62,124 nt of DNA from contig CAZRED010000003.1 in assembly GCA_964599405.1 (NCBI GenBank), forward strand, positions 1-62,124. The letters run 5' to 3'. Made by a program: the position numbers and the translations under genes. A model generated the notes under the pieces. The model did no database searches, was not told where the DNA came from, and saw only the letters and a program-made list of their open reading frames with translations. Positions 340 through 56,236 of the stretch are shown piece after piece; the first letter of the stretch is position 1, and every line of letters begins with the position of its first letter. This DNA is from an uncultured Candidatus Saccharibacteria bacterium (GTDB lineage: Bacteria; Patescibacteriota; UBA1384; 2-12-FULL-50-11).

Positions 340-1416
340 ATGTTAGACATACGTGGAAAAATTCTGTGGTGGGCGGCGCGGCGACTAATTGAGCGCGACC
401 AGCCGTTTGTTATTGCCATTGGTGGCGGTATCGCTAAGACTTCGACGAAAGTTTCTTTAGGAACAGTTCTAACAAAGGCCTTTCCCGGCCAAGTCCGGGT
501 TGGATTTGGCAATCTCAATACGTATCTGGGAGTACCGCTTGCGGTACTGGACTTTCATTTGGATTTTCATCAGCAAAAACTATCAGTTTTCCATTGGCTA
601 TGGGTATTGAAATTGGCGATCTGGAAAAGCTTATTTGGAAAGTTGCCGAAGTACTTGGTTCTAGAGTACGGCACCGATCGGCCGGGAGATATTGCTTCGC
701 TAGTTAAACGGCTTGCACCGGATATGGCGTTACTAACAATAGTTGCTCCGGCCCACGTGGCCAACTACGGCTCGCTCGAGGCAGTGGCTGAAGATGAAAG
801 TGCCTTAGTTGCTGGCAGTAAAATGGGCGCGCCAATTATTATTAACGCCGCCGATCCCTTTCTTGCCCTACACCGTAAAAATGCCGGTCTTCGCCCAGTA
901 ATTGAGGTTAAAACAAAGCTCGAAACAATTGCTGGTGAATTCGCCCGAGCCGCTGCCGCTCAATTGGGAGTAGCCAAAGATGTGATTAATGAGGCCTTGG
1001 CCACCGTGCAAAATCCCGCTGGTCGTTTCCAGTTTCGGCAAGTCGGTGGCTACAAGTTAGTTGACGATTCATACAACGCAAACCCGGCTTCTATGGAAGC
1101 GGCCCTGCATGTGCTAGAGAAACTGCCGGCTCCGCGGGTGGCAGTATTGGGAACAATGCTCGAACAGGGCGAAGATGAAGTAGCGATGCATAAAGAGGTT
1201 GGAGAGATGGCTCACAGGGCTGCTGATACGGTGATTGGGGTGGGCCAGTTAACCGAAAATTACCAGCCAACTGTTCATTATCAGACAAGTGAGGAAGCGG
1301 CTCGAGCAATCTTCTCACACCTGCCGGAAACTGCTAGCATTTTGGTGAAGGGCTCCCGAGGGGTCCACATGGAAAAAATTGTTAAACAAATAGTGGGAAA
1401 CGATGGGAATAACTGA
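340..1416 (+). CDS. murF: UDP-N-acetylmuramoyl-tripeptide--D-Ala-D-Ala ligase MurF (short form, no N-terminal domain)
   Basis: NLNTYLGVPL, LEYGTDRPGDI, DDSYNANPASM, LVKGSRG motifs; directly upstream of mraY. Confidence 0.85.
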   Translation: MLDIRGKILWWAARRLIERDQPFVIAIGGGIAKTSTKVSLGTVLTKAFPGQVRVGFGNLNTYLGVPLAVLDFHLDFHQQKLSVFHWLWVLKLAIWKSLFGKLPKYLVLEYGTDRPGDIASLVKRLAPDMALLTIVAPAHVANYGSLEAVAEDESALVAGSKMGAPIIINAADPFLALHRKNAGLRPVIEVKTKLETIAGEFARAAAAQLGVAKDVINEALATVQNPAGRFQFRQVGGYKLVDDSYNANPASMEAALHVLEKLPAPRVAVLGTMLEQGEDEVAMHKEVGEMAHRAADTVIGVGQLTENYQPTVHYQTSEEAARAIFSHLPETASILVKGSRGVHMEKIVKQIVGNDGNN

Positions 1417-2425
1417 TATCGCGCATTTTGCCCTGGCGAAAACTTTCTGGCTAGCTAGCCTGTCTTTTTTGGTGGCCGTGCTGTGGACACCGCTTTTTAC
1501 CGATTTTCTTTACAAAAATAAGCTCGGTAAACGGATTCGCCAAACTGGTTTCGACGAGAAAAACGCCCCGATCTTTTACGCCCTCCATAAGCACAAAGAA
1601 AACACCCCAACGATGGGTGGGCTACTTATTTGGATTACCACGGCAGTAATTACTCTACTAATGAACCTCTCCCGATCCCAAACCTATCTGCCGTTATTTG
1701 TTTTGGTGGCCACTGGGGTGGTGGGGGCAATTGACGACTTGATGAACATCAACGGGGTTGGGCCTAATCGGGGTGGCTTACGGTTCCGTTGGAAAGTACT
1801 GCTTTATTTGTTGGTAGCCTTGGTCGGGTCTTGGTGGTTTTTCTATAAATTAGGCTGGAACATTTTAACGCTCCCCGGCATCGGTACTTTTGAAATTGGT
1901 GCCTGGTACATACCGCTGTTTGTTGGGGTAATTGTCTTCACGACGTTTTCGGCTAACGAAGCCGACGGTTTGGATGGGCTATTAGCTGGGATGATGGCCA
2001 GTGCCTTTGGAGCCTTCGGGATCATTGCCCTAGTTCAAGGTAAGCCGGAGTTGGCAGCATTTTGCGGGACAATTTTGGGCTCACTGTTAGCGTTCTTGTG
2101 GTTCAATATTTATCCGGCCCGGTTTTTTATGGGCGATACTGGGGCAATGGCGCTGGGAATGACCTTAGGCGTCCTAGCCTTTTTAACAGATACTGTATTA
2201 ATTTTGCCAATAATCGCCTTAATGATTTATGTCGAAGGGTTCTCTGCCATCATTCAAATTCTTTCCAAGAAATTCCGGGGCGGAAAGAAGATATTTTTAT
2301 CGGCGCCAATCCACCATCATTTGCAAGCACTGGGTTGGCCAGAGCCAAAAATAACCATGCGTTTCTGGGTAATTTCGGCCGTTACCTCGATGCTCGGCCT
2401 GTTTGTTTACTTAATTAGTAGGTAA
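1403..2425 (+). CDS. mraY: phospho-N-acetylmuramoyl-pentapeptide transferase MraY
   Basis: KENTPTMGG, DGLDGL, FMGDTG, APIHHH motifs; multi-TM. Confidence 0.97.
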   Translation: MGITDIAHFALAKTFWLASLSFLVAVLWTPLFTDFLYKNKLGKRIRQTGFDEKNAPIFYALHKHKENTPTMGGLLIWITTAVITLLMNLSRSQTYLPLFVLVATGVVGAIDDLMNINGVGPNRGGLRFRWKVLLYLLVALVGSWWFFYKLGWNILTLPGIGTFEIGAWYIPLFVGVIVFTTFSANEADGLDGLLAGMMASAFGAFGIIALVQGKPELAAFCGTILGSLLAFLWFNIYPARFFMGDTGAMALGMTLGVLAFLTDTVLILPIIALMIYVEGFSAIIQILSKKFRGGKKIFLSAPIHHHLQALGWPEPKITMRFWVISAVTSMLGLFVYLISR

Positions 2426-7488: not shown

Positions 7489-8389
7489 CGAAATTTTTGC
7501 TGAGCGGTTTGGTGAAAACTTTCGCGACCACCAGCCGCTTTCCCAAATCCTTCCCACCCGCATAGGGGGAGTGGCCGATTACTTTGTGGTTGCTAAGCAA
7601 GCTAACGACTTAGTTGATGCGGCCATGCTGGCGATTGAGCATAAAATCCCTTACCGCGTTTTGGGTAGCGGTACCGGAGTGTTAGTTGGGGAGTCGGGGT
7701 TCCCCGGGTTAATTATCCAAAACCACACCAGTGGCTGCACTCGCTTAGGTGGATCAAGCAGGGTAGACGTGGAGTCTGGGACAAAGCTTAGTTTTCTGGT
7801 TCATTCACTGGCGTCACAAGGCTTGGGTGGTTTAGAGTTTTTCTCTCTTATCCCGGGTACGGTCGGTGGCGCCATTGCCAGTACCGCCGCTCAAAACGGG
7901 CAGAAAGTTTCGAGCTTTGTTCGAGAAATTCGTCTCTTTGATCCCGATCGGCGCAAAGTAGCTAGTTTGCCGTTTTCGGATATTGCCACTCCGGCTCGAA
8001 CCCCGTTATTTAGTGATGACGTAGTTTTTCCCCCAATTTTAATTTCAGCCACGTTCCAAATGGCGCAGCTTTCCCAAGATGAGATTCTCCGCCGGCTGAA
8101 AATTCTTGGAAAGAACCGGCGCGGCTGGCCGGCGACGGCCATTGCGATGCCGTTTATTGATCAGATTAACCAGATTCCCACAGAAAAAGATGTCGCTAAA
8201 GAGTTGGGGCAAATCGGGGTTCGATACTTTGCCAATGAAGAGCTGTTAACTTTTAACCCCGAAAAAACCCAGCCAGCCCAAGTTCGTCAGGCGCTAGAAT
8301 CTCTCCAGCAGCAAGCGGCTCGGTTCGGCGTTGAGACAACGCCACGCGTCACGTATCTTGGATACTACCAGGACAAAGATGGCACGTAG
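7460..8389 (+). CDS. murB: MurB-like FAD-binding protein with degenerate C-terminal catalytic region
   Basis: TRIGGVA, GSGTGVLV..SGFPGLII, GLEFFSLIPGTVGGAI; position after murC; start moved to ATG 7460. Confidence 0.75.
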   Translation: MTNLPPSRINEIFAERFGENFRDHQPLSQILPTRIGGVADYFVVAKQANDLVDAAMLAIEHKIPYRVLGSGTGVLVGESGFPGLIIQNHTSGCTRLGGSSRVDVESGTKLSFLVHSLASQGLGGLEFFSLIPGTVGGAIASTAAQNGQKVSSFVREIRLFDPDRRKVASLPFSDIATPARTPLFSDDVVFPPILISATFQMAQLSQDEILRRLKILGKNRRGWPATAIAMPFIDQINQIPTEKDVAKELGQIGVRYFANEELLTFNPEKTQPAQVRQALESLQQQAARFGVETTPRVTYLGYYQDKDGT

Positions 8390-9167
8390 GACACCAAAAG
8401 TATTTTATTCATCGTATAGCCAAACCCAGCGATCGATTTCGGGCGGGTCAACTATGTCGCCGGGGCAATTTCGCCAGTTGCTAATTGTGGCAATTATTAT
8501 TATCGGCGGATATTTTCTAACCCGTTTACCGGTTTTCCAAATAAAGACCGTAACAATTACTGGAACTGATGACCCGGCGTTAATTGGCGAGCTCAATAGT
8601 TTGGTCGGTTACTCAATTCTTTCGGCCAGCGTCACCCAAAAGGTTCAAGAAGTTAGCCAAGCCCATCCGGAGCTAGAAAAGTTAGATTGTATTAAGGGCA
8701 TTCCCGACACCCTGCGCTGCGTGGCGGAGTTGCGCCAAGCGTTGCTAGGCTGGCGGACTAATGGCCAAACCTACTTACTTGACCAACACGGTGTTGCCTA
8801 CCAACAAACTACTAGCCCGGCGGTGCTGGTGGTGGAGGACCGTAAAAACGTTGTCGTTGCCCTGGGCGACCGACCAATTAGTAGCGAAGTGCTGGATGTC
8901 TATCGGGTCCTTCAAAGTGGGCTTACGGCTAACGGCTACGTCGTTGATAAATTTTTTGTGAACACCTCTGTCTTACATGCCGGCGTAGTCGTTAGCAGTC
9001 GCGCAGTGGGATTGCCATTTCCTGCTAACCCTATTGAACTGGAGTTTTCGCTAAGCTACCCAGTATCAATTCAAATCAGCACCCTCAATAAGTTACTAGA
9101 ATCCAAGAGCGGCCAAATTGGCTTACGTGTCGATTTGCGCACGCCTGGCTACCTATACTACAAATAG
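8379..9167 (+). CDS. FtsQ/DivIB-like cell division protein
   Basis: N-terminal TM then FQIKTVTITG POTRA-like start; C-terminal VDLR motif; position at end of dcw cluster. Confidence 0.7.
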   Translation: MARRTPKVFYSSYSQTQRSISGGSTMSPGQFRQLLIVAIIIIGGYFLTRLPVFQIKTVTITGTDDPALIGELNSLVGYSILSASVTQKVQEVSQAHPELEKLDCIKGIPDTLRCVAELRQALLGWRTNGQTYLLDQHGVAYQQTTSPAVLVVEDRKNVVVALGDRPISSEVLDVYRVLQSGLTANGYVVDKFFVNTSVLHAGVVVSSRAVGLPFPANPIELEFSLSYPVSIQISTLNKLLESKSGQIGLRVDLRTPGYLYYK

Positions 9168-9250
9168 CAACTAGGATATTGCTAAGTGTTCGTTTACCGA
9201 ACACTATAGCAACTAGGACGTTGCTTAGTGACCGTTTACCGGACACTATA
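9167..9250. repeat. 42-bp tandem repeat x2, each unit with two hairpins
   Basis: gcaactaggatattgctaagtgttcgtttaccgaacactata / gcaactaggacgttgcttagtgaccgtttaccggacactata. Confidence 0.85.
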
Positions 9251-9256
9251 GGGTCA

Positions 9257-10942
9257 ATGGAAAAAACCCGTTGGCATCTTTATCGACGAAGCGATAGCGG
9301 TTTGCTCAAGCATCTCTGCCGGATTCGTCAGCTACCGCTGGCGGCTCTCCAACCAAGCTTTAGCGAGCATCTCCACCCGCCGGAGTTACTACCAGATATT
9401 GTCGAAGCTCGGCAACTAGTTGTGGCAGCCGTTAAAAACCGCTGGCACTGCCTGATTTTTGGAGATTACGATGCCGACGGTACTCCGGCTGCGGCGATTT
9501 TATCAATGGCCTTTGACCGAATAGGTTTAGCGCATGAAGTGGTGTTGCCAACCCGCGCTACTGGCTATGGATTGCGTCTGGAAGATATCCCCAGGTTTGC
9601 TGCTAAAAGTCAGTTATTGATTACGGTTGATACCGGTATAACCTCGGTTAAAGAAATTGCCTTGGCAAAAAAACTGGGCATGAAAATAATCATCCTCGAT
9701 CACCACTTACCAAAAACACTACTACCGGATGCTGATGCGATCGTTGACCCATTTATTGAGCGCTCGACCTACCCATTTAACGATCTCTGCGGCTCGGCAC
9801 TGGCCTATAAGCTAGTGTTAGCACTCCAAGCTGACTTTCCCAAGCAACTTAGCGAGGGTTATTGTAAGTGGCTGATAGAAATTGTGGCGATTGCCAGCGT
9901 TGCCGATATGATGCCGTTAATTGGTGAAAATCGGGTGATTGTTCACTTCGGTCTCCAGACCCTCGCCAAGACCCGTCGACCCGGCTTGATTGCATTAATG
10001 AACGTGGCCGGGATTAATCCGCAAGCCTTGTCGGCCAGCACGCTGGGTTTTGCCATTGGACCACGGTTTAACGCTAGCGGTCGTTTGGCCGATAATCGGC
10101 CGGTCTTTGATCTACTGAAAACTGACAATATGGATGAAGCGTTAAAAATTGCCCAAGTGCTGGAGCAAGCCAATCGTCAGCGCCAAGATCTGGTAGTGAA
10201 AGTGCTGATTGAAGCAAAAGCACTGCTTTGGCAGCAGAACAGCCCAGACGATCACCTGATTGTACTGCGCGGTGATACTTGGCCAAGTGGTGTCTTGGGC
10301 TTAGTCGCAGGTAAAATTGTGGCCGAGTCGAACCGACCAACGATCGTGCTAACCAAAACTGCCAGCGGCTATGCGGGCAGCGCCCGTTCAATCGAAGGTT
10401 TTTCAATGATTGATGCCCTTGAACAATCCCACGATCACCTTGGCCGGTTCGGTGGCCACCGTCAGGCGGCCGGCCTAGCAATGTCCGAGCAAGAATTGCC
10501 GCAGTTTGTAGACAGTATCAAGGGGTTTGCGAAAAAAGCGTTAACCAAAGAAGATCTCCGACCGATTGTGGAAATTGATTCTGAACTATCAACCACCGAG
10601 CTAAACCTGGAAACAGTTCGAGACATTGAGCAGCTGGCGCCGTTTGGTTATAAAAATTCACAGCCACTGTTTCTACTGAAAAACGTTAACCTGTCTCGGC
10701 CAACAGTGATGGGGTCGGTCGGTAACCACTTGAAATGGCGGACCAAAGTTGGAGAAGTGCCGCTGGAAATAGTTGGGTTTGGTTTGTCAGAGCGTTTTTT
10801 CGCAACACCTGTTGAGCTAGCCGATATCGTTGGCTCGTTAGAGCAAAACCAGTGGAATGGGAGCTCACGCCTACAGCTAAAGTTGAAGGATTATCGCTCG
10901 GTCGGACAACCAATCGATAAACACTTAGACGTTCCGGCTTAG
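9257..10942 (+). CDS. recJ: single-stranded-DNA exonuclease RecJ
   Basis: GDYDADG, VDTG, LDHH, GSARS, GGH motifs; start moved to ATG 9257 past the repeat. Confidence 0.95.
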   Translation: MEKTRWHLYRRSDSGLLKHLCRIRQLPLAALQPSFSEHLHPPELLPDIVEARQLVVAAVKNRWHCLIFGDYDADGTPAAAILSMAFDRIGLAHEVVLPTRATGYGLRLEDIPRFAAKSQLLITVDTGITSVKEIALAKKLGMKIIILDHHLPKTLLPDADAIVDPFIERSTYPFNDLCGSALAYKLVLALQADFPKQLSEGYCKWLIEIVAIASVADMMPLIGENRVIVHFGLQTLAKTRRPGLIALMNVAGINPQALSASTLGFAIGPRFNASGRLADNRPVFDLLKTDNMDEALKIAQVLEQANRQRQDLVVKVLIEAKALLWQQNSPDDHLIVLRGDTWPSGVLGLVAGKIVAESNRPTIVLTKTASGYAGSARSIEGFSMIDALEQSHDHLGRFGGHRQAAGLAMSEQELPQFVDSIKGFAKKALTKEDLRPIVEIDSELSTTELNLETVRDIEQLAPFGYKNSQPLFLLKNVNLSRPTVMGSVGNHLKWRTKVGEVPLEIVGFGLSERFFATPVELADIVGSLEQNQWNGSSRLQLKLKDYRSVGQPIDKHLDVPA

Positions 10943-15193: not shown

Positions 15194-16369
15194 ATGGCGA
15201 CACGTTGGCCGATATCAGTAGTGGGGGTAGCAGAGATAATCAGTGAAAAAGAGCTGCAGCGGCTCTTTAAGCAAAAACGTCCGCTCGTTGTAAAGTTAGG
15301 TGTGGATCCAACCTCCAAAGACCTGCACCTGGGTCACGCCGTAGTATTACGGATGCTCAAACAGTTTCAGGATTTAGGCCATAAAGCTTATTTAGTGATT
15401 GGCGACTTTACCGCTTCGATTGGCGATCCGGCGGGCGTTAGCAAAACTCGTCCGATCTTAAGTGACGAGCAGATTCGGGAAAATATGCAGAGCTACCTTG
15501 AGCAAGCCCGACTAGTTCTGGATATGGACAAAACGGAAGTGGTCTACAATTCCAGCTGGCACAAGTCCATGTCGCTTCATCAGTTTATCGGCTACGCCTC
15601 CCAAATTTCGGTCAATCAATTAATTGACCGAGAAGATTTTGCAAATCGCTTATCCAATCAGCAGCCGTTGGCACTACCAGAGCTGCTTTACCCGGTGGTT
15701 CAAGGATTGGACTCGGTGGAGCTGAAGGCCGATATCGAAATTGGCGGCTGGGATCAGCGGCTGAACTTATTAACCGCTCGGGAATTGCAAAAAAAACTGG
15801 GCCAGCGCCCGGAAGTGCTACTAATGATGAAAGCCCTGCTGGGCAGCGACGGCGTGAAGAAAATGAGCAAGAGCGAGAACAACTACATTGCTCTTGGTGC
15901 CAGCGCCGACCAAATGTTTGGAAAAATTATGAGCCTGGCCGACGAGTTAATTCCTAATTTCGCTGAGGCAGCGGCTGGTTGCGACGAGTTGGAAGTGAAG
16001 CGACTACTGGCTCTCCATCCCAAGCAAGCGAAGATCGAGCTAGGCAAGAAAATCGTCGCCATTTATCATGGGAGCGCTGCGGCCAATCTAGCCGCCGAGC
16101 GCTTTGAAGACACCTTCACGAATCGTCGGGTCAGCAGCCACTTAGTCGAGAACGTGACGTTCGACGACTGGGAGATCCCACTGATTCAGGCCGTTACCAA
16201 GGCAGCACTAACAAGCACTTCGGAAGCGAGAAGACTAATCGAACAAGGAGGCGTCAAGCTTAACGGTAAAACTGTTACCGACCAGTTTCAGCCAATTGGC
16301 TTGCGCAAAAGCGGCGCCCAACTGCAGGTGGGCAAGTTTCGGTTTTTTGCGCTACGATGGAAAAAGTAA
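15194..16369 (+). CDS. tyrS: tyrosine--tRNA ligase
   Basis: HLGH, GGWDQ, KMSKS, C-terminal S4 domain (SEARRLIEQGGV). Confidence 0.93.
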   Translation: MATRWPISVVGVAEIISEKELQRLFKQKRPLVVKLGVDPTSKDLHLGHAVVLRMLKQFQDLGHKAYLVIGDFTASIGDPAGVSKTRPILSDEQIRENMQSYLEQARLVLDMDKTEVVYNSSWHKSMSLHQFIGYASQISVNQLIDREDFANRLSNQQPLALPELLYPVVQGLDSVELKADIEIGGWDQRLNLLTARELQKKLGQRPEVLLMMKALLGSDGVKKMSKSENNYIALGASADQMFGKIMSLADELIPNFAEAAAGCDELEVKRLLALHPKQAKIELGKKIVAIYHGSAAANLAAERFEDTFTNRRVSSHLVENVTFDDWEIPLIQAVTKAALTSTSEARRLIEQGGVKLNGKTVTDQFQPIGLRKSGAQLQVGKFRFFALRWKK

Positions 16370-17181
16370 TGGGTTATAAACGGGGGTTCACCCTAATTGA
16401 GGCGTTATCGGTAGTGGCGATTATTGGCATTTTAGTTTCGCTGGCAGTGTACGTGGTTACCCAAGCCCAACGCCAAGCTCGGGATACTAAGCGCAAATCC
16501 GACCTGGCGGCCATTTCCCAGGGGTTTGAGGCTCGATTCTTGGATAGAACTTGCAGCGATCAGGCGGTGGTTGGACAGTACCCTGGCAAAGCACTGTTGG
16601 ATGCTGACAGCGGAACTACCGGGAAAATGCTTTGGCATAAGGTTAGTGAGCTGTCCGGGTTAACCGACAACTGCAATCCGTTTAGTTACTATCTAGCTAA
16701 TGTTCCAACCGACTCACTTGGGGTTCAAAATCAGTACTATTTTAATCTTTCCGGTTCCAGCCTACCCGCCGAGCATTACCGCCTAGCTGCCCGGCTGGAA
16801 AAAGTCCCGTCAGATGCCCAATGGGAAGAAATTTGTCGGTTGAGCGACGTTTGGTCGGAGAATTTTTACGGCCAACCCTACGACGGCTGCGGCGGTGACA
16901 CAATCGCTAAATTCGGACGAGTGTTGTTGGCCGCCACCCTACCTGGACAAGGCACCGGTGGAACAGGCGGGACGGGCGGCACCGGCGGCACCGGTGGAAC
17001 AGGCGGCACCGGTGGCGGCACAGTACCGTGCGAGCCGACAGAAGTTGAAAGCCCACCCGGTTCGGGGAACTGTGTTCCAGGCGGTGGCGGTGAAGGCGGC
17101 GGTGGCGAAGGTGGTGGTGAAGGTGGCGGCGGCGGCCAAGAAGAGATACCACTACCTTACAACTACTACATTGGCCGTTGA
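16369..17181 (+). CDS. type IV pilin-like protein with Gly-rich low-complexity insert
   Basis: G|FTLIE prepilin site, ARDTKRKSDL helix; GTG/GEG repeats; ATG 16369 overlaps tyrS stop (alternative 16357). Confidence 0.9.
   Translation: MGYKRGFTLIEALSVVAIIGILVSLAVYVVTQAQRQARDTKRKSDLAAISQGFEARFLDRTCSDQAVVGQYPGKALLDADSGTTGKMLWHKVSELSGLTDNCNPFSYYLANVPTDSLGVQNQYYFNLSGSSLPAEHYRLAARLEKVPSDAQWEEICRLSDVWSENFYGQPYDGCGGDTIAKFGRVLLAATLPGQGTGGTGGTGGTGGTGGTGGTGGGTVPCEPTEVESPPGSGNCVPGGGGEGGGGEGGGEGGGGGQEEIPLPYNYYIGR
16951..17133 (+). repeat. coding low-complexity repeats (GTG)n and (GGGE)n
   Basis: ggcaccggtggaacaggcgg occurs twice; ggcggtggcgaaggtggtggtgaaggtggcggc. Confidence 0.85.
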
Positions 17182-17217
17182 GTTGTATTTAACTGTCTAG
17201 CCATTATATAATTCAAA

Positions 17218-17330
17218 CGTCCCAGCGCTCAGATAACTCCGGGCAACAAATCTTTAGCTAATGATAATTTCAGCGGAAGCCACGAATGATAACGAACAAA
17301 ATTTATTTTGTGAGTTTTCTGAGCTGGACG
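17218..17330. repeat. long imperfect inverted repeat in argS leader
   Basis: gctcagataactc (17227-17239) pairs with gagttttctgagc (17312-17324). Confidence 0.7.
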
Positions 17331-17340
17331 AAGGACAGCG

Positions 17341-18927
17341 ATGATTATTGGCCAACTACATCAGGCAATTCGCCAAGCGTTTATTCAAGCAATCGGCTCA
17401 CCGCCGCCGCAGTTTGTTATTGAGCCCGCCAAACGAACCTTTTTTGGTGATTTTTCTACCAATATTGCCATGGTGGCTGCCAACGAAACAGATGAAAATC
17501 CGGTGGCTTTAGCCCAAAAAATTGTCCAAAAAATGACAGCCAGTGAGGTTTTTAAATCGGTCAGCGTGGCCACCCCCGGCTTTATTAACTTCACAGTTAC
17601 TGATGAATATCTTCTGGAAGTAGTGCGGGCGATTATTCGCTCACCTGAAAGTTACGGCCGCAGCGATTTGGGTAAAGAAATTCGGGTGCTACTGGAGTTT
17701 GTCTCGGCAAACCCAACCGGTCCGCTGACGCTCGCTAATGGCCGCGGTGCTTTTGTTGGTGAAGCAATTGCTCGGGTATTAGAGCTATACGGCTGCACGG
17801 TGATGCGCGAGTACTACAGTAATGACCGCGGCAACCAAATCGTCTCATTGGGTAAAACAATCCTTGGTGAGCCGGGCGGAGAGTACGCTGGTAAGTATAT
17901 CGATGAATTAAAGAAGCGGGTTAAAGAGCCAACTGCCGAGGCGGCGGGGGAACAGGCAGCGGCAATTATTATGGAAGAAATGATAAAGCCAGTTCTGAAA
18001 CAAGTGGGCATAGACTTTCACCAGTTTTTCTCCGAGAAATCGCTCTTCAGCACTGGTGTTTACAAAAAAAACTTAGAGCTGCTGAAGTCGCGTGGGCTGG
18101 TTTACGTGGCTGACGGGGCGACTTGGCTAGCGACCACTCGATTTGGCGACGATCAAGACCGGGTGTTGGTGCGAACGGATGGCGCTGAAACTTACTTTGC
18201 CTCCGACATTGCCTACCATTCCTACAAAATTCAGCGCGGCTATCACCGGTTGATTAACGTCATGGGAGCCGATCATTTTACGTACAGCAAACAAATGACC
18301 ATGATCGTCGAAGGAGTGCTACGCGATCACTACATGTGGGGCGGCAAGCTCGATTGGGTGGTGACGCAAATTGTCCGGCTGATGAAAGATGGTGAGGAAG
18401 TGAAGATGTCCAAGCGAGCCGGCACCTACGTACCTCTGGACGAATTGTTGGAAGAAATTGGTCCAGACGTTACCAGATTCTTTTTCTTGAGTCGGAGTGT
18501 TGATGCCCACCTAGACTTTGACTTTAACTTAGCCAAATCAGCGACCAGCCAAAATCCGGTTTTTTACATCCAGTATGCATATGCCCGCATTAGCTCAATT
18601 TTTCGTCAATTTTCTAAAACCGATGATTTTGCCGTGCCAGAGAAAATAATGATTACCCACCCGGTCGAACGACGATTATTACTGCGGATTATTCAATTCC
18701 CCGATTTGGTGGAGGAGATTGCCGGAGATTTACAGGTTCACAAGCTAACTCACTACGCTCTCGCCTTAGCCACCGATTTACACGCTTTTTATGAACAATT
18801 GCGGGTTCAGGGTGAGCCGCCGGAGATTGCTCAGTCACGTTTGGCGATTCTGAAAGCGACCAGTCTTACTATTAAGAAAACCCTTGATCTCATAGGGGTT
18901 AGCGCCCCGTCGCGCATGTTACGCTAA
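17341..18927 (+). CDS. argS: arginine--tRNA ligase
   Basis: GDFSTN, EFVSANPTGPL, TYFASDIAYH, MSKRAG, YIQYAYARI. Confidence 0.96.
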   Translation: MIIGQLHQAIRQAFIQAIGSPPPQFVIEPAKRTFFGDFSTNIAMVAANETDENPVALAQKIVQKMTASEVFKSVSVATPGFINFTVTDEYLLEVVRAIIRSPESYGRSDLGKEIRVLLEFVSANPTGPLTLANGRGAFVGEAIARVLELYGCTVMREYYSNDRGNQIVSLGKTILGEPGGEYAGKYIDELKKRVKEPTAEAAGEQAAAIIMEEMIKPVLKQVGIDFHQFFSEKSLFSTGVYKKNLELLKSRGLVYVADGATWLATTRFGDDQDRVLVRTDGAETYFASDIAYHSYKIQRGYHRLINVMGADHFTYSKQMTMIVEGVLRDHYMWGGKLDWVVTQIVRLMKDGEEVKMSKRAGTYVPLDELLEEIGPDVTRFFFLSRSVDAHLDFDFNLAKSATSQNPVFYIQYAYARISSIFRQFSKTDDFAVPEKIMITHPVERRLLLRIIQFPDLVEEIAGDLQVHKLTHYALALATDLHAFYEQLRVQGEPPEIAQSRLAILKATSLTIKKTLDLIGVSAPSRMLR

Positions 18928-19005
18928 CCCCTTTCCAAAAACTCCGTTTTTGTAATAGGTGTTAGCGCTCCGTCGCGGATGTTGCGTGAAGACAGAAGCG
19001 TTTAA
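18892..19005 (+). repeat. in-frame, synonymously recoded duplicate of argS 3' end
   Basis: 18892-18924 and 18955-18987 both encode IGVSAPSRMLR; 5 differences, all synonymous third positions. Confidence 0.9.
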
Positions 19006-20831
19006 AGAGTAACTTGGTAAACACTGTTGTTGGCAACGAACCACAGTTCCCCGCCAACAATAGCGACGCCACTGATAGTTTTATCACTGACAAAGTAGCG
19101 CTGCCAAACTAACTCATTGGCAGGCGTTAGAACCGTAATCAGATTGTCGGTTTGAATCACGGTTAACCCCGCCTCAGTAGTGTCAATTCGACTGTCGGCG
19201 TTAGTGAATAAGTACGGCAAGATGCTACGGGTTTGCTCGCCGCGACGCCAACTGACTACACCGTTACTGGTTAGAGCAATAAAGTCGCCGTTGACGGTAA
19301 AATCAAGCAATTGTGCGCCACTGACTGCTGATAGGTTGTTGTACGGCGTTGTAGCGGTAATTTCGCCGGCAAAGCCACTCGCCCGATAGATACCGTTCGA
19401 CTCGGCAGTGTATATATAAAGATTGGCAGCGTACTTGGCGATTAATTTAACTCCAGTGGAAAGGGGGGCGGGCAGAGCAACAGCTACCGGCCCATTAGCC
19501 TCCCCACGATAGTGCCAAATATTGCCAAGACTATCGGTCACCACTAAGGAAGTTTCACTGAAGGCTACCAACCCAGTTGGCTGGCCAACTTTAAACAAAT
19601 GGTCAATTTGTTTGAGTCCACCGCTAAACAACAATTGCCAGAGCTGTCCCGTCTCGTCGACTAAATATAGCGATTCACCGGCCGGACTGATATCAACCAC
19701 CGAGTTAGGCAGTTCACTGACTACTCCCAGCAAACTGGCCAGTTCAATGCCCCGTCCAATTAGCGCTTGAGCCAATTCGGTGCGTTGGTCCTCTGCTAAC
19801 CCGGAAATCGTCCCCGCATTTTCCCGTAAAAAAGTCAGGGTGTTTTCAGCGGCCACCTCACTTAGTTGGGAGGTAATTGTGATATTTTGACTGGATGTTT
19901 CAGGCTGATTCGGGCGAAGCCATACCCAAATCAGCCCAACTGCCAGAATTATGGCAATTGCGCCAAACTGGAGCTGTCGCCGGCTGGGGCGTTTGATGCG
20001 TCTGACTAATGCCGGGAGCTCTCTAAAAAACCCAAATGATATTTTTGGTAATTTTGGCATAGTCAACCGGGGAAAAGCTGGTTTAGAAAATTGCGGCAGA
20101 TTGGGTAAATGGAATTTTGGCAAACGGATCGGGTAACGTTTCTCGCTTTCCTCCCAGTAAAGCGTTGCTTGGGCGCTCTGATCGGTGGAGTACTGTAGTA
20201 ATACAAGATTTAGAGAGTTTTGGGAGTTTTGGGCGCGGCTCTGAATTTCACTGGCTAATTGTTCAACTGAAGGTTGCTGCCAGAGTTCCGCCGGTTCGGA
20301 GGCTAAAAACTCGTAAAGATTTTGATTGGTGATACAAACAATATCGTTGCTATCGATGTCACCGCTGGTGACGGCCGCGAATTGGCCGCCAGCCTTATCG
20401 GCTCCGGCAGTCACGTCACTAAAAGTGCCGGAGCGAGCCAGTAGTATCCGACAAGTGCCAATTGTCGAAAAGTGAATTTGGTTATCTTCTAAAATAACCG
20501 CTGCTACCGATACCGGTTGTTGGATTTTTTCTTGCGACTTCACAATAGCCTTATTTAATTCCTTGAGCGCTTCTTCAAAGCGGATGAGGGTGGAGCGTGA
20601 TTCTGAGTGGGTGAATTCCCGGACGTATATTTGCCAGAACGATGTCGCTGCTTCCCGGGCGTGGTGCCAACGTTCCGGAATATCAATCATTAAAATTAGT
20701 CCCACCGGATGGGAGTCTTTAGACAAAACCGCAAAATAACTACTGCTAACGGCGTCTAGCGAACGTTTGTGGGCGAAGCGAAAAAGGCGGTAAGGGAAGG
20801 TAGTGTCGGCTGTCAGGTTTGTTTGGTCCAT
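19002..20831 (-). CDS. membrane protein: degenerate PP2C-like N-terminus, single TM, beta-propeller-like C-terminus
   Basis: IHFSTIGTCRILL resembles PP2C GDSR strand; TM FGAIAIILAVGLIWVWL; repetitive beta segments. Confidence 0.55.
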   Translation of the reverse strand: MDQTNLTADTTFPYRLFRFAHKRSLDAVSSSYFAVLSKDSHPVGLILMIDIPERWHHAREAATSFWQIYVREFTHSESRSTLIRFEEALKELNKAIVKSQEKIQQPVSVAAVILEDNQIHFSTIGTCRILLARSGTFSDVTAGADKAGGQFAAVTSGDIDSNDIVCITNQNLYEFLASEPAELWQQPSVEQLASEIQSRAQNSQNSLNLVLLQYSTDQSAQATLYWEESEKRYPIRLPKFHLPNLPQFSKPAFPRLTMPKLPKISFGFFRELPALVRRIKRPSRRQLQFGAIAIILAVGLIWVWLRPNQPETSSQNITITSQLSEVAAENTLTFLRENAGTISGLAEDQRTELAQALIGRGIELASLLGVVSELPNSVVDISPAGESLYLVDETGQLWQLLFSGGLKQIDHLFKVGQPTGLVAFSETSLVVTDSLGNIWHYRGEANGPVAVALPAPLSTGVKLIAKYAANLYIYTAESNGIYRASGFAGEITATTPYNNLSAVSGAQLLDFTVNGDFIALTSNGVVSWRRGEQTRSILPYLFTNADSRIDTTEAGLTVIQTDNLITVLTPANELVWQRYFVSDKTISGVAIVGGELWFVANNSVYQVTL

Positions 20832-20840
20832 AGAAGGTTG

Positions 20841-20914
20841 TCGGGACAGTGAGACTTGAACTCACGACCTCCGGACCCCCAGCCCGGCGCGCTACCAAAC
20901 TGCGCCATGTCCCG
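20841..20914 (-). tRNA. tRNA-Pro(GGG)
   Basis: CGGGACA/TGTCCCG acceptor, CCGGG-CTGGGGG-TCCGG anticodon arm, TTCAAGT T-loop. Confidence 0.96.
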
Positions 20915-20924
20915 AAATTGAGTA

Positions 20925-21200
20925 TCAGTCGTAGTCGAGCCCACGAACGGCTTGCTCCTGTGCCCGATTAGCCTTGCCGCATCCAACGAATTGGCACCCA
21001 ACAATGTGTCTCTTATGTGTCCAGCCCCGACACAGGCGTATCGCCCAGATCCAAGCTAAAATTGTAAGACAGGTGGGTATCCTTCTGGGCCTACCAAGGT
21101 AGACCCTGATCGCTTAGCCGGTTGGCCAGCGCCCAAAGGGTAGATTCCCGTAGAAATCTGTAAGGACCAATTGTTGTAGCGTACAAGGCTACCGTCAATA
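20925..21200 (-). ncRNA. candidate structured RNA (family unidentified)
   Basis: ORF-poor GC-rich intergenic stretch with nested stems GCTTG/CAAGC, CCTGTGTC/GGCACAGG, GGTCTACC/GGTAGGCC. Confidence 0.35.
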
Positions 21201-21227
21201 TAACGACAACCAAACGAGTTTCAAGGG

Positions 21228-21866
21228 TTAGCCACCGATGAGTAGGGCAGTGAGCTGGTTGCTGGCAAAGACTAAGTAATCAAGCAAGAAAAATATCACT
21301 AAAAAGAAGATGCCGAAAAAGAGTAGGGGATTCGAAGCCAAGGAAAAGTAGGTTTGTTCTGGTAAAAATAACCGCAGTAACCGGGAACCATCGAGTGGCG
21401 GAATCGGTAAAAGGTTGAAAAACATTAAGAAGATATTTAGATATATCCCCAGAAAAATTATCGCTTCTGCCAAGTCTGGTAGCGCTACAAAACGGTAAAT
21501 GGCAGCAAAAACAATCGCTAAAATAAGATTGCTCATTGGCCCAGCTAAGGCCGTTTGGATGCCATAGAGCCGGGGATTGTCGAAATTGCGCTCATCCACC
21601 GGGACTGGTTTGCCCCAGCCAAAAACTGGCAAATTCAAGCCGAACATCCGTAGTACTAACAAGCCAACCAGCAGAGTTGTTCCCACCGGATCCCAGTGTC
21701 GCAAGGGGTTTAACGACATCCGTCCGTCCATTTTGGCGGTTGGGTCGCCGAACAGGTTGGCCACAAAGGCGTGGGCAAACTCGTGAACCGTTAAACTCAT
21801 TAATATCAACACAATTACCCCGATCCCCACGAGCGTCGAAATTAGAACCGTCCCTTGAACATCCAT
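21228..21866 (-). CDS. site-2 protease, peptidase M50 family
   Basis: HEFAH, ALAGPMSN, FNLLPIPPLDG. Confidence 0.93.
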   Translation of the reverse strand: MDVQGTVLISTLVGIGVIVLILMSLTVHEFAHAFVANLFGDPTAKMDGRMSLNPLRHWDPVGTTLLVGLLVLRMFGLNLPVFGWGKPVPVDERNFDNPRLYGIQTALAGPMSNLILAIVFAAIYRFVALPDLAEAIIFLGIYLNIFLMFFNLLPIPPLDGSRLLRLFLPEQTYFSLASNPLLFFGIFFLVIFFLLDYLVFASNQLTALLIGG

Positions 21867-53798: not shown

Positions 53799-53822
53799 GG
53801 ATATGTGTTTAAACACATATCC
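53799..53822. repeat. perfect 24-bp palindrome (GTTTAAAC family copy 1)
   Basis: ggatatgtgtttaaacacatatcc. Confidence 0.9.
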
Positions 53823-55720: not shown

Positions 55721-55748
55721 GAAAGTATGTGTTTAAACACATACTTTC
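55721..55748. repeat. perfect 28-bp palindrome (GTTTAAAC family copy 2)
   Basis: gaaagtatgtgtttaaacacatactttc. Confidence 0.9.
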
Positions 55749-56210: not shown

Positions 56211-56236
56211 AGAGTATGTGTTTAAACACATACTCT
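56211..56236. repeat. perfect 26-bp palindrome (GTTTAAAC family copy 3)
   Basis: agagtatgtgtttaaacacatactct. Confidence 0.9.

Follow-up and report, generated by a model that had tools for sequence, protein, structure and literature searches.

Why does the gene for an aminoacyl-tRNA synthetase carry two versions of its own 3' end, one in use and the other just downstream of the stop codon, and which of the two belongs there? The question is raised by argS in the stretch of 62,124 nucleotides that was analysed here as a whole (the window), where the gene occupies positions 17341-18927 of the plus strand and encodes an arginine--tRNA ligase (ArgRS) of 528 amino acids, as judged from the open reading frame, its translation and the Pfam domains Arg_tRNA_synt_N, tRNA-synt_1d and DALR_1. 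The best relatives of this protein are two ArgRS of Patescibacteria/Berkelbacteria, P0001 and P0002 (93% and 92% identity, respectively). The last 11 codons in use (18892-18924) and the stop TAA (18925-18927), together denoted copy 1 (18892-18927, plus strand), read ATA GGG GTT AGC GCC CCG TCG CGC ATG TTA CGC TAA. Offset by 63 nt, in the same frame, lies copy 2 (18955-19005, plus strand, 51 nt), ATA GGT GTT AGC GCT CCG TCG CGG ATG TTG CGT GAA GAC AGA AGC GTT TAA, which comprises the counterparts of the 11 codons (18955-18987), a tail encoding EDRSV (18988-19002) and a TAA stop (19003-19005). Between the two copies is a 27-nt spacer, CCCCTTTCCAAAAACTCCGTTTTTGTA (18928-18954, plus strand), with a single occurrence in the window. 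The 26 codons 3' of the stop of copy 1 stay open and in frame, and the C-terminal peptides that the two ends would give are ...SAPSRMLR and ...SAPSRMLREDRSV.

Both copies encode the peptide IGVSAPSRMLR. They differ at 5 of the 33 nt (positions 6, 15, 24, 30 and 33, with G, C, C, A and C in copy 1 and T, T, G, G and T in copy 2) and share identical stretches of 8 nt. All five differences are in third codon positions and are synonymous; the probability that five random substitutions are all synonymous is 7-9e-4, and that all five fall in third positions, 0.002. The repeat had been reported in a preliminary description of this DNA, and its coordinates and sequence proved exact; the further proposal made there, that both copies were once under coding selection for IGVSAPSRMLR, is supported by the synonymous-only differences (p ~8e-4), which are consistent with such selection having shaped both. 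A degenerate 32-mer representing the repeat has two matches in the window, namely the two copies, against 0 expected, and of the 58 gene ends that the window contains, only those of argS and mraY (12 nt) are followed by a significant repeat of the end. At the mraY end (2414-2466), the end of the gene is followed by its complement and then by the gene end again, the repeat being perfect over 12 nt and the complement 13 nt long.

The genome was assembled from a metagenome, and the preliminary description had pointed to a chimera of two strains as the way in which such a repeat could be spurious. Searches of the Logan runs with three different stretches of this DNA found a single public run that contains it, X1, a permafrost metagenome. 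Over 18400-19500, an independent k=31 Logan contig from this run (9072 nt, depth ~10) reproduces the window without a single difference or gap. Differences between the two copies occur every 5-9 nt, which leaves them no 30-mer in common, so that a de Bruijn path cannot hop between strains at this point, and given that the k=31 assembly reproduces the structure, every 31-mer across both junctions is present in the reads. A search for alternative contigs over the repeat region at an identity of at least 80% found none. In the sister run X2, there is a low-depth strain that is ~96% identical to the window, represented by a 171-nt contig at 19018-19181 that stops short of the junction; the existence of this strain speaks for an assembly-level or read-level chimera of co-occurring strains, as does the metagenomic origin of the genome, but with the independent assembly identical to the window, such an artefact is very unlikely. 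The doubled argS end is genuine DNA, confirmed at the assembly level.

The native end of the gene can be recognized by comparison with relatives, a comparison that the preliminary description had called for. Downstream of argS and convergent with it is a gene for a 609-aa protein (19002-20831, minus strand), the conserved neighbor of argS in this clade, delineated by its open reading frame, by synteny in the related loci L001 and L002, and by its C-terminus ..WFVANNSVYQVTL, which is conserved among the relatives. A Pfam scan of this protein produced no match; one partial relative carries the NCBI name PP2C-family phosphatase. In nine related loci, the distance from the argS stop to the convergent stop ranges from -14 to +7 nt, and is exactly -4 in five of the nine (L002, L004, L011, L012 and L013). 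The stop of copy 2 lies at the same -4 position relative to that of the 609-aa gene (19003-19005 versus 19002-19004), whereas the stop of copy 1 lies at +74 nt, a distance that is seen in no relative. The protein termini agree with this picture. All 65 listed members of the ArgRS clade contain the near-invariant motif ...KKTLDL[IVM]G[IV][ST]APS[RK]M, which is followed by V, L, I or M, usually by R or K, and then by 0-12 variable, mostly polar residues. The REDRSV tail of copy 2 fits this pattern (compare SRMVREDTKS and SRMIRDSKES), and an ArgRS that ends at copy 2 would have 533 aa, the length of P0002, whereas an ArgRS that ends at copy 1 terminates in ...SRMLR, the same as P0001. No second copy or occupied site was found in 17 related loci. 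Because its tail fits the clade and its stop is at the conserved -4 position, copy 2 is shown by this comparison to be the ancestral argS end at its native position, now an apparently untranslated relic, and the extra material at the argS end is the segment 18892-18954. By itself, the -4 overlap shows solely that copy 2 has remained linked to the 609-aa gene throughout.

If copy 2 is the original end, the extent to which copy 1 departs from it bears on the origin of copy 1. The identity between the copies is 28/33, which can be compared with the values for L001 (27/33 with copy 1 and 28/33 with copy 2) and for L002 (25/33 and 27/33, respectively). No genomes closer than L001 and L002 are known, and these two have argS sequences 78-80% identical to that of the window at the nucleotide level and a fourfold-site identity across argS of 0.39-0.47, near saturation. 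This comparison shows the two copies to have diverged like orthologues of separate species (MAGs). Divergence that is synonymous only and reaches the level of orthologues implies that both copies were translated while they diverged, that is, in separate genomes, and given that the relic displays no visible decay, the event that brought them together would be recent.

The 63-nt block that precedes the relic has a structure of its own. A perfect 11-bp hairpin, AGGGGTTAGCG-N17-CGCTAACCCCT (18894-18932), spans the stop codon of copy 1; its fold energy is -19 kcal/mol, a value equalled by 4 of 1000 shuffles. A comparable hairpin is absent from the argS end in nine relatives. Two of the five bases specific to copy 1 (G at 18897 and C at 18924) lie within the stem, and the shared hairpin suggests that copy 1 is co-adapted with its own flank. 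Within the spacer, the right arm of this hairpin is followed by a second, small A/T hairpin, CAAAAAC-TCC-GTTTTTG (18936-18952), which fills most of what remains. Perfect stems of at least 11 bp at or across stop codons are common among the other gene ends in the window, far above the expectation from shuffles; 3' of the stem at argS, there is only a short T run (TTT/TTCC), the loop is 17 nt long, and a consensus scan for promoters and terminators reported none. The new gene end thus has in this hairpin a plausible candidate for a terminator or for a structure that marks the 3' end. No Rfam family was recognized, whether the gathering threshold or E<=1 was applied. We also considered whether the spacer could be a remnant of the donor's own convergent gene and rejected this possibility, the minus-strand peptides YKNGVFGKGLA* and TKTEFLERG* being unlike the family C-terminus ..[VA]Y.[VIL].[LN]*.

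Hairpins of this kind could also mean that the arrangement as a whole is functional, with copy 2 selected as the A' partner of CGCTAACCCC in an A-B-A' RNA switch, or retained as part of a read-through isoform. Indeed, CGCTAACCCCT can pair either with copy 1 (11/11) or with AGGTGTTAGCG of copy 2 (10/11), the 26 in-frame open codons after TAA would permit an extended protein, and an A-B-A' layout is also present at the mraY end. However, the similarity between the copies reaches 22 nt past the part that can pair, the z-scores of the folds are weak (-1.6 and -2.1) and go along with the negative Rfam result, and no relative has the repeat, so that conservation offers no argument for a function. 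As for read-through, genes of the window end in TAA more often than in any other stop (25/47), and a release-factor gene is present. We therefore consider a functional arrangement highly improbable.

The explanation that we favor, with somewhat more than even confidence, is that the doubled argS end is a recombination scar, left when homeologous DNA of a related species was joined illegitimately on one side. Under this scenario, the block that now precedes the relic would consist of 11 foreign codons, the stop codon of the lineage they came from, and 27 nt of flank that complete the 11-bp hairpin, and its donor would be a different but related Berkelbacteria-like lineage. The foreign DNA would most simply have been taken up by transformation and have entered via homeologous recombination, with one junction within homologous sequence, where it would now be invisible. 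The other junction would be an illegitimate join at 18954/18955, made 33-51 nt "too early", such that both ends were kept, the old tail among them, with a redundancy of 33 nt. In one version, the incoming DNA would be on the left, that is, the argS side with copy 1 and 27 nt of flank from the donor, whose own argS would then end ...CGC TAA CCCCTTTCC.... The local sequence fits the mirror version equally well, with copy 1 and the spacer resident and the 609-aa gene, together with 51 nt of the donor's argS end, having come in from the right. Either way, ArgRS would have lost a dispensable tail of 5 residues, and the convergent genes would have come to end 74 nt from each other, separated by a strong hairpin. 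How the recombination proceeded, from which side, and whether the hairpin acts as a terminator are matters that we infer from this structure.

The main rival requires no foreign DNA. An in-frame tandem duplication of 63 nt could have occurred in situ in an ancestral argS of 533 aa, via slippage or template switching, and could have been followed by a GAA>TAA change and by remodelling of the linker into hairpins. The duplicated unit would be 21 codons, KKTLDLIGVSAPSRMLREDRS, present at 18874-18936 and 18937-18999. Several features fit: the 63-nt period is divisible by 3; TAA of copy 1 is aligned with GAA of copy 2, one substitution apart; the heads of the two units, that is, the last 18 nt of the spacer and the 18 nt before copy 1, match at 10/18 positions in register (p ~0.008); and the translated linker (E)PLS-KNSVFV is loosely similar to EDRS-KKTLDL. 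The likeness of the heads and the TAA/GAA alignment are predicted by in-situ duplication and are not predicted if the spacer is foreign flank. In addition, AGGGGTTAGCG in copy 1 recurs as its exact reverse complement in the right hairpin arm, as expected from template switching, and the mraY end has the same layout with perfect copies. Template-switch (quasipalindrome) mutations reportedly generate duplication-inverted-duplication structures on the micro-scale, and the argS end resembles such products in its layout, in which A is followed by its reverse complement and then by A', with the mraY end as a second example.

The pattern of divergence runs against tandem duplication. Divergence is uneven along the putative units, with 5/33 differences in the cores versus 16/30 between them; the tails of the units match at 4/12 positions, and the 30 nt after each core at 8/30. 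A second copy released from constraint should have decayed at the pace of its flanks and gained non-synonymous changes, but all five differences are synonymous, and if all five changes fell in the coding copy 1 while the neutral copy 2 stayed unchanged, the probability can be estimated at ~(9/42)^5, roughly 5e-4. The divergence of the cores would also date the duplication to the split from L001 and L002, and neither of these has the repeat. Template switching, which draws on a genome's own DNA, cannot alone give five synonymous-only differences at the level of divergence between orthologues. Taken together, these observations make an in-situ duplication unlikely, although it is the alternative that we take most seriously.

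A further reading takes the 63-nt block for a self-contained "gene-end cassette", made up of recoded codons, a stop and a bidirectional hairpin, that would be installed by a recurrent, perhaps even dedicated, process which finds gene ends via homeology or template switching. We regard it as quite improbable. If it were true, overlapping convergent genes would gain a terminator of their own in this manner, and the mraY end would be another case in this genome, more recent than that at argS.

In the preliminary description, the doubled end was attributed to an incoming element that carried an attP-like replacement 3' end and displaced the old one. Integration into the 3' ends of tRNA, tmRNA and protein-coding genes commonly proceeds in this way: a near-copy borne by the element replaces the end of the gene, and the original is displaced. 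The argS end resembles the resulting attL/attR duplications in that the end in use is a near-copy and the original is found downstream as a direct repeat. If it were a remnant of a site-specific integrative element, copy 1 would be on the attL side and copy 2 on the attR side, the body having been deleted later to 27 nt; the 8-nt stretches identical in the two copies could be a crossover core, and a tRNA-Pro gene lies 1.8 kb from the argS end. The window is a Patescibacteria chromosomal housekeeping stretch, as indicated by Pfam scans of 56 large ORFs; the majority are housekeeping genes, and 14, including that of the 609-aa protein, have no Pfam match. It encompasses a mur/ftsW cluster, recJ, radA, a class A PBP, tyrS, a pilin-like gene and argS, then the 609-aa gene, tRNA-Pro, an M50 protease, holB and a tRNA cluster, and furthermore a full type IV pilus set, dprA, topA, recR, cysS, prfA/B-like and pth genes and genes for ribosomal proteins. 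Among the 56 large ORFs of the 62-kb window, the Pfam scans revealed neither an integrase, excisionase or transposase nor a phage gene, in agreement with the earlier remark that no integrase is visible. L001 and L002 share the gene order tyrS - pilin-like - argS - 609-aa - M50, and onward through holB. The 11-codon core, either version of which the preliminary description had proposed to look for in phages and islands, has no match in IMG/VR, among INPHARED phages or among PLSDB plasmids, and neither has the spacer.

Unlike attL/attR duplications, the argS end combines a body of only 27 nt with intact synteny, the 17 related loci include no occupied site, and a second, nearly exact internal deletion would be required. 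A site-specific element is accordingly improbable in our estimate: of the original proposal, the replacement and the displaced old end stand, and the attP-like element does not. Neither is there a basis for the other suggestion made at the time, that an allelic tail was kept for swapping: the relic is a single one, accompanied by neither a recombinase nor an inverted arrangement. A diversity-generating retroelement was likewise rejected, as the mismatches are not at adenines and the sole RVT_3 match belongs to an RNase H gene 16 kb away.

The lack of a donor and of a mosaic signal in the region counts against the favored scenario of recombination with a related species. ArgRS-based scans of metagenome and genome contigs, Logan searches and exact-protein look-ups produced neither a donor nor a pre-event allele, and gave distant relatives only (at most 93% amino acid and ~80% nucleotide identity). 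No public sequence with copy 1 and the spacer was found, and the exact-protein look-ups gave no record of the window's own ArgRS. A homology search with the 609-aa protein retrieved the same nearest contigs as that with argS. Codon usage and GC3 of argS and of the 609-aa gene are typical in comparison with 45 other genes. No mosaic signal emerged in argS or its neighbors when sliding identity and quartet site patterns were computed with L001, L002 and L011, the patterns being star-like and saturated, and the per-gene identity matrices present the same saturated picture. Flat outcomes in all these tests are expected where silent sites have reached saturation in the nearest genomes, and with relatives at such a distance the tests have almost no power.

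Among known processes, the closest counterpart is homology-facilitated illegitimate recombination (HFIR), described for natural transformation in Acinetobacter, Streptococcus pneumoniae and Pseudomonas stutzeri, in which homology anchors the foreign DNA on one side and an illegitimate join closes the other (PMC3240628). As in HFIR, where an illegitimate joint may retain an insertion, a deletion or a short redundancy, the argS event would require neither a recombinase nor a mobile element, and the redundant segments appear, on the divergence described above, to come from different lineages. Genes for the uptake and processing of DNA (type IV pilus, DprA, RadA and RecJ) are present: the window encodes PilB, PilT, PilC, PilD, PilO, pilins, DprA, RadA, RecJ and RecR, and comEC was not seen within its 62 kb. 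Patescibacteria (Saccharibacteria) are naturally competent, as shown experimentally in members of the phylum other than this host (PMC10633639). Unlike the demonstrated cases of HFIR, the argS event is deduced from its product, and its host is Berkelbacteria-like, a group from which HFIR is not known.

The argS end also invites comparison with in-situ (xenologous or orthologous) gene displacement and with the horizontal transfer of aminoacyl-tRNA synthetase genes, which is reportedly frequent. As in these cases, a housekeeping aminoacyl-tRNA synthetase gene, or a part of it, would have been replaced at its own locus by another lineage's homologue, with the neighbors staying in place. Unlike the usual in-situ displacement, the donor would be close, as indicated by the same 11 residues with the rare V and L states. 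With a close relative as the donor, the displacement is invisible in phylogenetic trees, and only the leftover end betrays the event at argS.

The argS case adds one more example to a class of events that is already known, this time at an essential gene of a phylum that has been little studied, and it involves no new element, system or mechanism. With respect to annotation, it accounts for an ArgRS that is 5 residues below the local norm and for the intact-looking mini-ORF downstream of it. If the favored explanation holds, between-species recombination has left at the argS end, in an essential housekeeping gene of uncultured Patescibacteria, a footprint that is small yet unusually clean, and the readable displaced end allows the event to be recognized even though trees and composition are flat. 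Bacteria of the candidate phyla radiation carry competence genes and are rarely cultured. Short, synonymous-only repeats of gene ends can be searched for systematically, and such a search may provide an estimate of the rate at which these bacteria incorporate homeologous DNA.

A scan of the gene ends in the window identified a significant downstream repeat of the gene end at only 2 of the 58 ends, those of an mraY-like gene and of argS, the arginine--tRNA ligase gene (17341-18927, + strand). The mraY-like ORF (1403..2425) terminates with the 12 nt ATT AGT AGG TAA, of which a perfect second copy is located at 2455-2466, offset 41 nt downstream. The two copies flank a 13-nt exact reverse complement (2433-2445). 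The layout of this site (2414-2466), in which the gene end is followed by its complement and then by a second copy of itself, is the same as at argS.

Among the related loci carrying argS, the BroJett034 locus (L012, 4560-4620) contains Gly-Ile-Ser codons, GGAATTAG, that are able to pair with CTAATTTCC across the argS stop codon. This pairing, 8 bp with one bulge, is an analogue of the stop-spanning hairpin of argS in the window but is weaker. In the MAG LejiaD_49_69, the argS 3' region and the sequence downstream of it are present twice, on contigs JBBDZM010000016.1 (locus L011) and JBBDZM010000009.1 (locus L015), and only 80 nt separate one of the two copies from the end of its contig. Such doubling probably reflects contig-end redundancy or the presence of two strains in the bin.

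The convergent neighbor of argS (19002-20831, - strand), which is conserved at this position, encodes a fast-evolving 609-aa protein that shows 63-65% identity to its nearest relatives, compared to 92-93% for ArgRS. This protein has no Pfam match; one partial relative is annotated by NCBI as a PP2C-family phosphatase.

Within 17002-21300, the window and the Logan contig, an independent assembly from the same run, differ by 18 nt of gaps. The most likely site of this difference is a run of Gly-rich GGN repeats with periods of 9 and 12-15 nt (16951-17135), with which the pilin-like gene (16357..17181) ends at its 3' side; this low-complexity stretch draws a pile-up of many unrelated contigs.

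Elsewhere in the window, a 42-nt tandem repeat (9164-9247; two copies, 86% alike), each unit of which holds two small hairpins, lies at the boundary between an ORF without a Pfam match (8331..9167) and a recJ-like ORF (9179..10942). Finally, a palindrome based on GTATGTGTTTAAACACATAC occurs in three copies (53799-53822, 55721-55748, and 56211-56236) within the lower-GC stretch at 54-56 kb, adjoining ORFs without Pfam matches, and resembles an operator.
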